The position numbers and the translations under genes are program-made. A stretch of 64,000 nucleotides of DNA from TPA_inf: Saccharomyces. Its lineage: Eukaryota. Below the pieces are notes generated by a model. It did no database searches. It saw only the letters and a list, made by a program, of their open reading frames with translations, and had not been told where the DNA came from. The first letter of the stretch is position 1, and every line of letters begins with the position of its first letter. This document shows positions 56,023 to 60,053 of the stretch, piece by piece. The stretch is from positions 352,001 to 416,000 of the forward strand of contig BK006947.3 in the NCBI GenBank assembly GCA_000146045.2, given 5' to 3'.

Positions 56023-56340
56023 TCTCCCTTGCCCCAGTGTACACATATATAAAAATATATTCATGCCTATATGATTATGTATCGGAATCCAAAAACTTAT
56101 CTTTATATTGCTTCGTTTCGTAGTTAGCAATGAATCATCTTATCATGATTCCTTTTTTTGTTTTGGCCAGATTAATGTATCACGGTCGACGGCGAAGGCA
56201 TCAACCATTGTTGTGGAATTTCAAACACAATACTTGATGACTCCAAACGTGGGCATATATTTTGATTTGAAAAGAAGTCGAGAAAGTATAGCAACGCATT
56301 GTATACGTTTGAAGCTTTCAGCAAAGGATATACCGTGGAA

Positions 56341-57909
56341 ATGTACACGCCTATCCCTGCTAATACCCCTGCTCCCACTGCACCAACTTCATCGATGACG
56401 TCCAACTCTTCATCCGCATCAAATGCCAACACCACTAGCAGTAGTGGCATAAACCCAAGGAACAGAGCCAGTGGTACTCCATCCAATGAGCGGGCTCGTC
56501 CGGCGTCGGGTATCAGTTCGTTTTTGAATACCTTCGGAATTAGGCAAAATAGCCAGACAGCTTCTTCTTCTGCGGCTCCTGATCAGCGTCTATTCGGCAC
56601 AACCCCATCTAACTCACATATGAGTGTGGCCATGGAAAGTATCGATACCGCTCCGCAACAGCAGGAACCACGTCTGCATCATCCTATACAAATGCCTCTG
56701 TCGGCCCAGTTCCACGTTCATCGCAACTATCAACTCCCCATCTCCATATCTCTCACTGCCCCTACAACCACAGACCACCAGCAATCATCTGCGCATAATT
56801 TCGAAGGCAACAATGTTGGTAACGTTCAAGAGTCTTTGAATCAGCGGCAGCCTAACGGTACTAACAATACCACAACCTCGATAATTTCCATGGCGCCAGC
56901 GGCTACAACGAGAAATATAGTCGGTGGTGCAGATGGATCTACTATTGTTAACAACAGTCAGGAAATGTATAAGAATTTACGTCACTTGATATATGCTGCA
57001 AACCAGCCAAATGGGACCGAAATTTTACATTTGGATTTACCTGCAACAAGTGCAGAGGAGTCAAACAATATGTTCAATGTAGATGAGGTCACTTTGAAGC
57101 AAAGGAAAGATAAGCATGGTCTTTTTAGTATAAGACTAACCCCATTTATTGATAGTTCGTCCACGACAAATCAAGGTTTATTCTTTGAACCGATTATAAG
57201 AAAGGCTGGCCCTGGATCCCAATTGGTTATTGGCCGCTATACTGAGCGTGTTCGCGATGCAATTTCTAAAATACCTGAACAATATCATCCAGTTGTATTT
57301 AAATCCAAAGTTGTTTCAAGGACACATGGTTGTTTTAAAGTTGACTCTCAAGGTAACTGGTATATAAAGGATGTGAAATCATCTAGTGGAACTTTCTTAA
57401 ATCACCAAAGGCTCTCACCCGCTTCCTCTTTATCGAAAGATACCCCTCTTCGTGATGGTGATATTTTACAGTTAGGAATGGATTTTAGAGGTGGCACGGA
57501 AGAAATCTATCGTTGTGTAAGGATGAGGATTGAGCTAAATAGATCATGGAAACTAAAGGCAAATTCGTTCAACAAAGAAGCTTTACAGCGTTTGCAGAAT
57601 TTACAAAAATTAACTACAGGTATTGAAGAAGAAGATTGTTCGATTTGCCTATGTAAGATCAAACCGTGTCAAGCAATTTTCATATCACCATGCGCACATA
57701 GCTGGCATTTCCGTTGTGTAAGAAGATTGGTCATGCTCTCATATCCGCAATTTGTTTGCCCCAACTGTAGATCAAGTTGTGATTTGGAGGCCTCCTTTGA
57801 AAGTAGTGACGAGGAAGATGAAAGTGATGTGGAAAGTGAAGGTGATCAACTGGTGGATCAACTTAGCGTCTTAATGGAAACTTCAAAGGATGTTGATAGC
57901 CATCCTTAA
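56341..57909 (+). CDS. DMA2: FHA-RING E3 ubiquitin ligase (CHFR/Dma family), 522 aa
   Basis: 536-aa ORF trimmed to the ATG at 56341 (MYTPIPANTPAP...). Central FHA domain. C-terminal RING: CSICLCKIKPCQAIFISPCAHSWHFRCV...CPNC. Confidence 0.87.
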   Translation: MYTPIPANTPAPTAPTSSMTSNSSSASNANTTSSSGINPRNRASGTPSNERARPASGISSFLNTFGIRQNSQTASSSAAPDQRLFGTTPSNSHMSVAMESIDTAPQQQEPRLHHPIQMPLSAQFHVHRNYQLPISISLTAPTTTDHQQSSAHNFEGNNVGNVQESLNQRQPNGTNNTTTSIISMAPAATTRNIVGGADGSTIVNNSQEMYKNLRHLIYAANQPNGTEILHLDLPATSAEESNNMFNVDEVTLKQRKDKHGLFSIRLTPFIDSSSTTNQGLFFEPIIRKAGPGSQLVIGRYTERVRDAISKIPEQYHPVVFKSKVVSRTHGCFKVDSQGNWYIKDVKSSSGTFLNHQRLSPASSLSKDTPLRDGDILQLGMDFRGGTEEIYRCVRMRIELNRSWKLKANSFNKEALQRLQNLQKLTTGIEEEDCSICLCKIKPCQAIFISPCAHSWHFRCVRRLVMLSYPQFVCPNCRSSCDLEASFESSDEEDESDVESEGDQLVDQLSVLMETSKDVDSHP

Positions 57910-58118: not shown

Positions 58119-60053
58119 TTAATCCTCGGTTAGTTTGCCAAGCTCACCTATTAATCTTAATAGGACTTCTTGAGTTTGTTGTTTGCCCAGACCATACTTA
58201 TATATTTCATGCCCACCTTCAACTATTTTCCATTCTTGAGTCTTGTGAGAAATTTTGGTCAAATCTCTTTGCCAATCGCCCCATAATGCCGACTTCTTCA
58301 CCATTTCCTTAGAGCTAACGATGCTTGTCTTCACATTTTGCAAAGATTCTGCATTGTTTGTCACATCTCTGTAACTTAGAATTGAACTCGTCACGCTTTC
58401 CAAAAACTTGGAACGCAAGAAACGTCCTTGATATTTCATATCACGCCCATATATACGTTCTTTAGACCCATGATGAGCTAGTAACCATGAAGTCTGTAAT
58501 CTCCATCCTAAACTCGACCAAATGCCTTTCCACCATAATCTAAATTCGTTATGCCTTTCTATCTCCGAAGGTAACCAAGTCTTATCATGGTTGCGGCCAT
58601 CCCCATCATTACCATTGCCATCGTCGCCATCGTCGCCATCACCACGGCCTGGAGGTAGTAATCTTTGAATGTAGTTTTTTAACAATAGTTCTTCATGCCA
58701 TGATTCAACAAGCATCATGCTATCCACAATATCGACATTCTTGGCGGTAAATACTCTTGTAAATAGCCCGCCAAGGTCGTATCCTACTGTAGTGAAGGGA
58801 CCTTTAATTTTTGCATCTTTGATCAATGCGTACCTTAAAGATTCCGCAACCATCGCAATAGAGATTGGGGCGGGAGGAGAATCGCTCAACCCGTACCCTG
58901 GTCTATCGTATAGACAATATCTTTGAATTTTGTCTAAATGATATAGTTCCTCAATCCAGGTGGCAGAAAGGTAACCAGTATCATAACCTCCGTGTTCAAA
59001 CAAGATGATAGGTTGCTTCTTATTTTCAGACAAATCTGTGTTGTTTTCTTGATCAAATACGTCACCATAACAAGTTATATGCAACTGATAGGTTTTAGCG
59101 GCATCTACGTAATGGAACGCCTCGTACGAGGGCGACTGAACGGTTATTGGTAATTTGTGAGTCAATCTGTAGGTATCCAATGTCGTTAAAAGTGTATTCA
59201 GGGTGAATAAAGCGAAGAATATTAAAATTAAAAACTTAATAGTATTCCTGAACCCAATGGATACCCATTCTGTCAATGTATGTTTGTTTTGGACCAGCTG
59301 CGAGCGGTGGGTGGGGGTTGGCGACCCAGAGCCATATTGGCTTCTGTCCCTGTTTTCGGTACTATTTGTATGGTTTTCGTTGAAAGTACTAATATTAGCA
59401 TCATCAATTCTGCGTTCCTCCAATGGCTCATTTATTGAGTTGTTGTAAAACAAGAGATACCAATCTAATATTGCCCCAATAAAAAATGAAAACGAAGTCC
59501 ACAAATATGTAAACGTGCCCACAAAGCCGATTCTTTGCCTAGTGTATTTAATTAGATAGGTCAATGCTAGATTGAACAACGTCAAAACACAGAGAGTTAC
59601 ATTTAAGCTGTAATCTAAAGCTGAGTACAGTCCCAGCTTATTAAACCAGAGATTGAAAGAATTAGCTATGATCGAGATGAATATTAAAGTCAAGTCGTTA
59701 AAACTTGCGTACCTGTTACTGAATCCGAAAAGAATATTGATATTGAAAAAGAAATCTGAAATCAAAGTGGTGACTAGCCAGATGGTGTTAATTAGAATTA
59801 GGATATTTAATATCCATTTGGAGTTATGAATAAAGATTCTATAACCTTTGCGAATTTGAAAGAGACTATCTTTGATGAACCCATCGGATTCAATGTCACG
59901 ACCTTCATTAACTGCTGGGCCATTCGCGGATCCTGCACCAAGGGTCCGGTGGTTGTTGTTCAGCAACGGTTGCGCTTCTGGGTGTTCACTATCTATATCT
60001 GTTCTTTCCATTCCCGTCCTTGCCGGATCATTATCTAAACCATTAGCCTTCAT
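58119..60053 (-). CDS. YNL115C: Uncharacterized multi-pass membrane protein with a C-terminal alpha/beta-hydrolase-like domain, 644 aa
   Basis: Full ORF. About 6 predicted TM helices in residues 80 to 300. After that come an HGG motif (EHGGYD, encoded at 58986..58994) and a nucleophile-elbow-like VGYDLGG (58767..58784). A G/D-rich loop (GDGDDGDDGNGNDGDG) follows, then a C-terminal GGHE. Confidence 0.82.
   Translation of the reverse strand: MKANGLDNDPARTGMERTDIDSEHPEAQPLLNNNHRTLGAGSANGPAVNEGRDIESDGFIKDSLFQIRKGYRIFIHNSKWILNILILINTIWLVTTLISDFFFNINILFGFSNRYASFNDLTLIFISIIANSFNLWFNKLGLYSALDYSLNVTLCVLTLFNLALTYLIKYTRQRIGFVGTFTYLWTSFSFFIGAILDWYLLFYNNSINEPLEERRIDDANISTFNENHTNSTENRDRSQYGSGSPTPTHRSQLVQNKHTLTEWVSIGFRNTIKFLILIFFALFTLNTLLTTLDTYRLTHKLPITVQSPSYEAFHYVDAAKTYQLHITCYGDVFDQENNTDLSENKKQPIILFEHGGYDTGYLSATWIEELYHLDKIQRYCLYDRPGYGLSDSPPAPISIAMVAESLRYALIKDAKIKGPFTTVGYDLGGLFTRVFTAKNVDIVDSMMLVESWHEELLLKNYIQRLLPPGRGDGDDGDDGNGNDGDGRNHDKTWLPSEIERHNEFRLWWKGIWSSLGWRLQTSWLLAHHGSKERIYGRDMKYQGRFLRSKFLESVTSSILSYRDVTNNAESLQNVKTSIVSSKEMVKKSALWGDWQRDLTKISHKTQEWKIVEGGHEIYKYGLGKQQTQEVLLRLIGELGKLTED

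Follow-up and report, generated by a model that had tools for sequence, protein, structure and literature searches.

YNL115C of Saccharomyces cerevisiae lies on contig BK006947.3 (assembly GCA_000146045.2), within the 64,000-nucleotide stretch that spans positions 352,001 to 416,000 of the forward strand. We refer to this whole stretch as the window, and all coordinates below are window positions. The open reading frame (ORF) occupies 58119..60053 (−) and encodes 644 amino acids (aa) followed by a stop codon. Its product is 100% identical to protein P0001 in public data, where orthologs in other Saccharomyces species are also named YNL115C. An original prediction, made from the letters of the window, described the gene as a polytopic membrane domain fused to an alpha/beta-hydrolase-like domain with Asp at the nucleophile elbow, and all of the motifs that it quoted are found in the translated ORF. 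Our analysis shows that YNL115C is a five-helix membrane protein with a genuine alpha/beta-hydrolase domain, in which Asp (D426) takes the position usually held by the catalytic Ser. The homologs carry mostly Asp or Gly at this position, and we refer to them as Asp-type and Gly-type. The combination of DUF2417 and Abhydrolase_1 is not new, since UniRef and domain labels already stand on the orthologs (“AB hydrolase-1 domain-containing protein” in UniRef); the new result is the evolutionary history of the elbow residue. The features of the hydrolase domain are as follows:

58149..59129 (−): alpha/beta-hydrolase-fold domain, residues 309-635, with strands at 309-315, 323-329, 349-354, 379-382, 420-425, 443-449, 575-581, and 605-611
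58986..58997 (−): E353-H354-G355-G356 in the loop after strand 3, at the oxyanion-hole position; the surrounding motif ILFEHGGYD covers residues 350-358
58767..58784 (−): nucleophile elbow G424-Y-D426-L-G-G429, from models and alignments; the motif VGYDLGG covers residues 423-429
58778-58776 (−): codon of D426, GAC
58689..58706 (−): E450-S-W452-H453-E454-E455, directly after strand 6
58341..58694 (−): helical cap, residues 454-571, between strands 6 and 7, from the secondary structure of the AlphaFold2 (AF2) model
58596..58643 (−): GDGDDGDDGNGNDGDG, G/D-rich low-complexity insertion in a cap loop, residues 471-486
58371..58373 (−): Y561, cap Tyr specific to the Asp-type clade
58206..58217 (−): G613-G-H615-E616, with the candidate catalytic His, in the loop 612-620 between strand 8 and the last helix; the motif VEGGHEIY, which contains H615, covers residues 611-618

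Searches against Pfam revealed that DUF2417 (PF10329) matches residues 26-328 with E 7.6e-67 over model positions 1-234 of 234, and that residues 348-619 score above the curated cut-off of Abhydrolase_1 (E 3.8e-31). The DUF2417 domain was also detected in every distant homolog tested. Since both families match strongly, the series of motifs is not a chance arrangement. Together with the AF2 model, which displays an eight-strand sheet with the elbow after strand 5, the Pfam match bears out the proposed alpha/beta-hydrolase fold. The G/D-rich insertion that had been pointed out in this domain is also real and takes the form of a low-confidence cap loop, with a predicted local distance difference test (pLDDT) score below 50 in the full-length AF2 model and about 50-56 in the domain model. 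The loop differs in length among Saccharomycetaceae; at its columns of the alignment, the other Asp-type yeasts have mostly gaps, and at least 94% of the Gly-type homologs have gaps.

In the AF2 model, D426 is situated between strand 420-425 (strand 5) and helix 428-438 (helix C). In HMMER alignments it pairs with the catalytic Ser in Est1, in a feruloyl esterase, and in the RtxA ABH domain, and with the catalytic Asp in the haloalkane dehalogenase DmxA, so the assignment of Asp to the nucleophile elbow stands on both model and alignment. The HGG sequence proposed as an oxyanion-like motif does occupy the expected position, in the loop after strand 3, but its His (H354) is conserved only in Saccharomycetaceae; the pattern conserved across the family is E353-x-G355, with no Pro at +3. 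H615, the C-terminal His that had been put forward as catalytic, is found at the canonical triad position, and His is present there in 150 of the 151 Asp-type homologs and in 111 of the 138 Gly-type ones. The probable triad acid is E450, which aligns to the post-strand-6 Glu of DmxA in a profile alignment. We favor this residue because position 450 is always acidic (D/E in 151/151 Asp-type and 138/138 Gly-type sequences). E583 and D582, both after strand 7, were considered for the same role and rejected, as these positions vary (D/K/N and F/E/Y/Q). S581 (58311-58313, −), just after strand 7 at the usual catalytic-acid site, is ~95% conserved in both clades. A PDB search using a profile of the C-terminal half, aimed at mapping Y561 and H615 onto solved epoxide hydrolases, returned no meaningful match; the full-length and domain profiles align with PDB entries over the N-terminal half of the hydrolase domain only.

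Word-indexed searches and one exhaustive profile search yielded 405 related proteins, and 293 of them are full-length members with both the membrane and the hydrolase domain; these form the basis of the elbow counts. The elbow residue is Asp in 151, Gly in 138, and Asn, Ser, Ala, or His in one member each. Ser is thus found in 1 of the 293, and S. cerevisiae has Asp, so YNL115C does not carry the GxSxG motif of serine hydrolases. The Asp-type motif reads G-[FYH]-D-x-G-G, and the proteins that host it have a median identity of 44% to YNL115C. They occur in Saccharomycetaceae, in the CTG clade (Metschnikowia, Candidozyma auris, Scheffersomyces, and Meyerozyma), and in Wickerhamomyces anomalus, Cyberlindnera, Pachysolen, Kuraishia, Babjeviella, and Sugiyamaella. 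The Gly-type motif, V-S-[AH]-G-x-G-[GS], was found in all sampled Pezizomycotina (Aspergillus, Penicillium, Fusarium, Exophiala, Tuber, Bipolaris, Blumeria, and others), in Taphrina deformans, in the early-branching yeasts Lipomyces and Myxozyma, and in Saccharomycopsis and Naumovozyma dairenensis. The original prediction would have the D and H positions conserved among homologs; this is the case in core budding yeasts but not outside them, as the 138 Gly-type members attest.

The two clades also differ beyond the elbow. Residues G424, W452, W523, S530, D538, R547, Y561, W594, and R596 are fixed in the Asp clade only, a pattern to be expected of a remodeled pocket; W452, for example, is present in 149 of 151 Asp-type sequences, and position 561 is Tyr in 84% of them versus K/R in the Gly type. 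Kept in both clades are C328, C380, R384, S390, D450, E454, R533, E552, S581, W591, Q595, and W608. At position 615, His is replaced by Glu in 17 Gly-type sequences, among them Chaetothyriales such as Exophiala. A nucleophile elbow requires small residues at Nu-2 and Nu+3 (Nu, nucleophile), and S424 of the Gly-type motif (LVS-A/H-G), considered as a shifted nucleophile, was rejected in view of the large residues at these two positions. Two Gly-type homologs are annotated as fusions, P0344 (1060 aa) with an aldehyde dehydrogenase (PF00171) and P0353 (1154 aa) with a flavin adenine dinucleotide (FAD) monooxygenase (PF01494); such fusions may be merged gene models or may hint at a metabolic neighborhood.

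The nearest proteins outside the family (P0126-P0207) are soluble, about 300 aa long, and carry GHSxGG. In this Ser outgroup, strand 3 is followed by E-x-G and strand 6 by LVDSSHED, a C-terminal GH is present, and the alignment contains no conserved acid after strand 7. The outgroup triad is therefore Ser-His-Asp, with a post-strand-6 acid. A neighbor-joining tree of 135 domains was rooted on these soluble Ser proteins, and elbow states were reconstructed by Fitch parsimony. The fungal family is monophyletic in this tree, and its ancestral elbow state is Gly. A yeast clade of 65 members comprises 57 with Asp and 8 nested members without it, namely, N. dairenensis, four Saccharomycopsis-like sequences, and the P0070/P0074/P0108 group. 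Its sister clade has 8 members (7 with Gly, plus Sugiyamaella with Asp), and the other 48 family sequences in the tree all have Gly. From these sequences we infer that the most economical history is a change of Ser to Gly in the ascomycete ancestor, followed by Gly to Asp in the core budding yeasts and a few reversions. Each of the two steps needs a single nucleotide change, the second being GGC to GAC. By this reconstruction, the Asp of the D426 type is a budding-yeast novelty that stands in place of Gly.

The part of the protein that precedes the hydrolase domain, along with two Cys residues inside it, bears on where the domain is located. The features concerned are as follows:

59961..59978 (−): E26-A-Q-P-L30-L31, acidic dileucine in the N-terminal tail
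59926-59928 (−): S42, phosphosite
59172..59819 (−): five transmembrane (TM) helices at about 79-103, 114-136, 145-167, 177-200, and 268-294, within DUF2417
59320-59322 (−): S244, phosphosite
59070..59072 (−): C328, in strand 2
58914..58916 (−): C380, in strand 4

Both AF2 and family-averaged hydropathy, which displays five peaks, give five TM helices and not the six or so that had been proposed. The counts of Lys plus Arg on alternate sides of the membrane are 10.8 for the N-terminal side versus 2.9 for the other. S42 and S244 are phosphosites that changed in an experiment on Hog1 kinase activity in anaerobic xylose fermentation (PMC6528989), and since they are phosphorylated, both segments should be cytosolic; the loop 201-267 is predicted to be disordered and cytosolic. 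Green fluorescent protein (GFP) at the C-terminus gave a signal in the vacuole lumen or cytosol, and an N-terminal tag gave endomembrane staining (PMC5947560). E26, P29, and L30 of the dileucine are at least 90% conserved, the consensus in distant fungi is ExTPLL, and ExxPLL/ExTPLL can be followed from Saccharomyces to Pezizomycotina. AP-3 cargo of the yeast vacuole membrane is recognized by E/DXXXLL or YXXPhi in a cytosolic segment (PMC8859911) and by its depletion from vacuoles of an apl5 deletion; by its sequence, EAQPLL is a putative AP-3 vacuolar sorting signal. Collectively, hydropathy, charge bias, phosphosites, the ExxxLL motif, and the tagging data point to a vacuolar or endomembrane protein whose N-terminus is predicted to be cytosolic and whose hydrolase domain is predicted to face the lumen. 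C328 and C380 are invariant in all 293 members, in both clades; strands 2 and 4 should be adjacent according to the canonical fold order, and a possible C328-C380 disulfide would fit a lumenal domain. In addition, the part of the family profile that covers TM helices 2-4 (residues about 107-222) gave weak PDB matches to the TM domains of nicotinic acetylcholine receptors (E 7e-4 to 0.03), which probably reflect hydrophobic composition rather than homology.

The original prediction compared the Asp at the elbow to that of epoxide hydrolases, haloalkane dehalogenases, and some C-C hydrolases. The last comparison is mistaken, as C-C hydrolases use Ser, which the BphD S112A entries show. Epoxide hydrolases have an Asp nucleophile within Sm-x-Nu-x-Sm-Sm (Sm, small residue) (Arand and Marowsky, PMC5340866) and an HGXP oxyanion-hole motif in which X is aromatic (PMC5605520). 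YNL115C does have the former, as G-Y-D426-L-G-G, and by position and conservation it offers candidates for the His and the charge-relay acid. It does not have the latter: Pro is absent from EHGGYD, and the corresponding residues in other Asp-type yeasts are E-G-G-Q or E-S-G-H. For the polarizing residues of the cap (Tyr/Tyr, or His/Tyr in Cif), the alignments offer as candidates one clade-conserved Tyr, Y561 (84%), plus H453; the position of Y461 is Pro in most yeasts. In haloalkane dehalogenases, a halide-stabilizing Trp directly follows the nucleophile, and the X of HGXP is N/E; YNL115C has neither feature, and position 427 is I/V/L/Y/M among its homologs. A search of NCBIfam gave weak, sub-threshold matches to Ser families only (PcaD, E 3.5e-8; BioH; RutD), and no epoxide-hydrolase or dehalogenase family was matched in it. 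Judged by these motifs and matches, YNL115C falls outside the epoxide-hydrolase and dehalogenase families, and its filing among them is not supported.

Comparison with individual enzymes leads to a similar picture. Cif and Cif-like epoxide hydrolases (PDB 3kd2, 4mea, 7jqx, and 7jqz) are soluble or secreted and have HGXP and a His/Tyr ring-opening pair, whereas YNL115C lacks HGXP, is 10-17% identical to them, is fused to a five-TM domain, and descends from Gly-type proteins; by analogy, it may nevertheless work like a Cif-type enzyme. In DmxA-type haloalkane dehalogenases (PDB 5mxp) the acid follows strand 6, as proposed here, and D426 falls on the DmxA Asp (VCHDWGS) and D/E450 on its Glu; however, YNL115C lacks both the Trp that follows the nucleophile and an HGXP with N/E, and the E-values of about 5e-4 are comparable to those of Ser esterases. 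Outside the family, the proteins closest to it in sequence are soluble: Ser hydrolases of the PcaD/BioH/RutD type and P0126-P0207. Like the family, they carry YDRxGxGxS and a C-terminal GH, with E-x-G following strand 3 and LVDSxHED following strand 6; they differ in having GHSxGG, with a Ser nucleophile, and no membrane domain. In Pezizomycotina, Taphrina, and Lipomyces, the DUF2417 proteins (“mitochondrial integral membrane protein”; S. pombe C23C11.06c-like) are members of this family and share its architecture. As Gly-type members, they share with YNL115C the invariant Cys pair, D450, R533, E552, W591, and Q595, and differ in having VS[AH]GxG[GS] and no yeast-specific W452, W523, Y561, or W594, with His615 lost in some lineages. 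The fold also includes proteins that have no nucleophile, such as NDRG2/3 and ABHD5/CGI-58; from these, YNL115C differs by keeping the His and the acid and by having a carboxylate at the elbow. An Asp-nucleophile alpha/beta hydrolase, which in membrane-anchored form had been considered unusual for yeast, is not unprecedented there, since S. cerevisiae YNR064c is an alpha/beta-hydrolase-fold epoxide hydrolase that is active in vitro (PMC11442136). YNR064c differs from YNL115C in being soluble and having the HGFP oxyanion motif of epoxide hydrolases (PMC5605520), a contrast drawn from publications rather than from an alignment.

Whether the Asp is catalytic has to be weighed against this background. 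We give a probability of roughly 0.4 to the reading that YNL115C has a lumen-facing, membrane-anchored hydrolase domain, in which the budding-yeast Asp belongs to a working Asp-His-Glu center with an origin independent of epoxide hydrolases and dehalogenases. The conservation of H615 and the acid at 450 throughout the Asp clade suggests such a center. In addition, Asp is essentially fixed within the Asp type although a single transition would restore Gly, and yeasts that lack the Asp often lack the His too: W. mucosus has Asn with His replaced by Glu, P0074 has Ser with the same His-to-Glu replacement, and in the Saccharomycopsis clade all 4 sequences have Gly and 3 of them have lost His to Tyr, Tyr, or Leu. 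The joint loss of Asp and His argues that they are a functionally coupled pair. According to the proposed scheme, the domain comes from Ser-His-Asp hydrolases with the acid after strand 6; Ser gave way to Gly in the ascomycete ancestor of the family, and Gly to Asp at the base of the core budding yeasts. In S. cerevisiae, D426, H615, and E450 fill the three triad positions and experience strong purifying selection. D426 would attack an electrophilic carbon of the substrate, possibly a lipid presented from the membrane, to form an enzyme ester, and water activated by His615/E450 would hydrolyze that ester, as in Cif-type epoxide hydrolases. The analysis establishes the fold, where the residues lie, how they are conserved, and the order of the elbow changes, from which the topology, the catalytic competence, the covalent role of the Asp, and the class of substrate are deduced. 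The full version of this scheme, in which a Gly lineage regained its nucleophile as Asp along with new pocket residues (W452, W523, Y561, W594, and R596) and became an Asp-His-Glu hydrolase facing the lumen at the vacuolar membrane, possibly acting on a lipid-derived electrophile and independent of the epoxide-hydrolase and dehalogenase families, is more doubtful, and we hold it to be rather unlikely in all its parts.

Several observations count against a working Asp center. The architecture and most invariant residues are retained with Gly at the elbow in 138 sequences, and therefore the core role of the family needs no nucleophile. His is retained alongside an elbow Gly in N. dairenensis, which branches within the Asp-type Saccharomycetaceae, and P0073 likewise combines Gly with His. 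A strained positive-phi turn is tolerated best by Gly, Asp, and Asn, so the Asp could be structural. There is also the lack of HGXP, of Trp after the Asp, and of a Tyr pair conserved in the alignments. These points would fit a pseudoenzyme, in which the domain is a non-catalytic module for ligand binding, sensing, or scaffolding, as in NDRG proteins or ABHD5/CGI-58, and D426 is a turn-compatible replacement of Gly. We regard this as somewhat improbable, about as much so as the full scheme above: the Asp has stayed fixed in 150/151 sequences of its clade even though Asp to Gly is one transition, His615 is fixed alongside it, with most losses in sequences that have also lost Asp, and an acid conserved at 450 in 100% and a His kept in 80% of Gly-type sequences represent more retention than is usual in decaying triads. 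If a function is common to both clades, it cannot rest on residue 426. Catalysis in this fold can proceed without a nucleophile, for which cofactor-free dioxygenases and MKS1-type enzymes are precedents, and in all members of the family the His615/acid-450 dyad could serve as general base toward water or substrate; D426 of the yeasts would then only tune the site and form no covalent intermediate. In agreement with such a dyad, both clades conserve the His and the acid after strand 6, as well as R533, E552, S581, W591, and Q595; the His, however, is lost in about 20% of Gly-type sequences, including the 17 with Glu, and we consider this explanation distinctly less probable than a pseudoenzyme. 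That YNL115C is a true epoxide hydrolase or haloalkane dehalogenase, as first proposed, strikes us as highly improbable. S. cerevisiae has EHGG and other yeasts have E-[GS]-G-[QH] where HGXP would be, the residue after the Asp (I/V/L/Y/M) is never Trp, the alignments offer no second conserved cap Tyr, Ser families rank first in both the NCBIfam and the PDB sequence searches, and the lineage leads back to a Gly-type ancestor and not to those enzyme families.

Upstream of YNL115C, the neighboring ORF at 56299-57909 (+) encodes a protein with FHA and RING-finger domains that is DMA2-like; the TTG start listed for it is an artefact of bacterial start-codon rules. In the literature that we searched, YNL115C was found only in screens, as a localization note, and as phosphosites; experimental data on its function were not found in the searchable literature, and no paper that names DUF2417 or P53925 was retrieved. 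SPAC23C11.06c occurs only in papers that, judged by their titles, concern expression and genomics.

YNL115C is conserved in yeast and has relatives throughout Ascomycota, including the pathogens Candidozyma auris, Exophiala, and Fusarium. If the D426/H615/E450 center works, YNL115C would be a second Asp-type alpha/beta hydrolase in yeast, with an independent origin and a lumen-facing position at the vacuolar membrane, and it would point to an unrecognized lysosomal/vacuolar reaction on lipids or xenobiotics. If the domain is non-catalytic, the family would be a well-defined set of fungal pseudo-hydrolases, with the Gly and Asp forms as ready comparison sets. The Ser-Gly-Asp series also serves as a natural test case for the return, with a different chemistry, of a catalytic nucleophile that had been lost.

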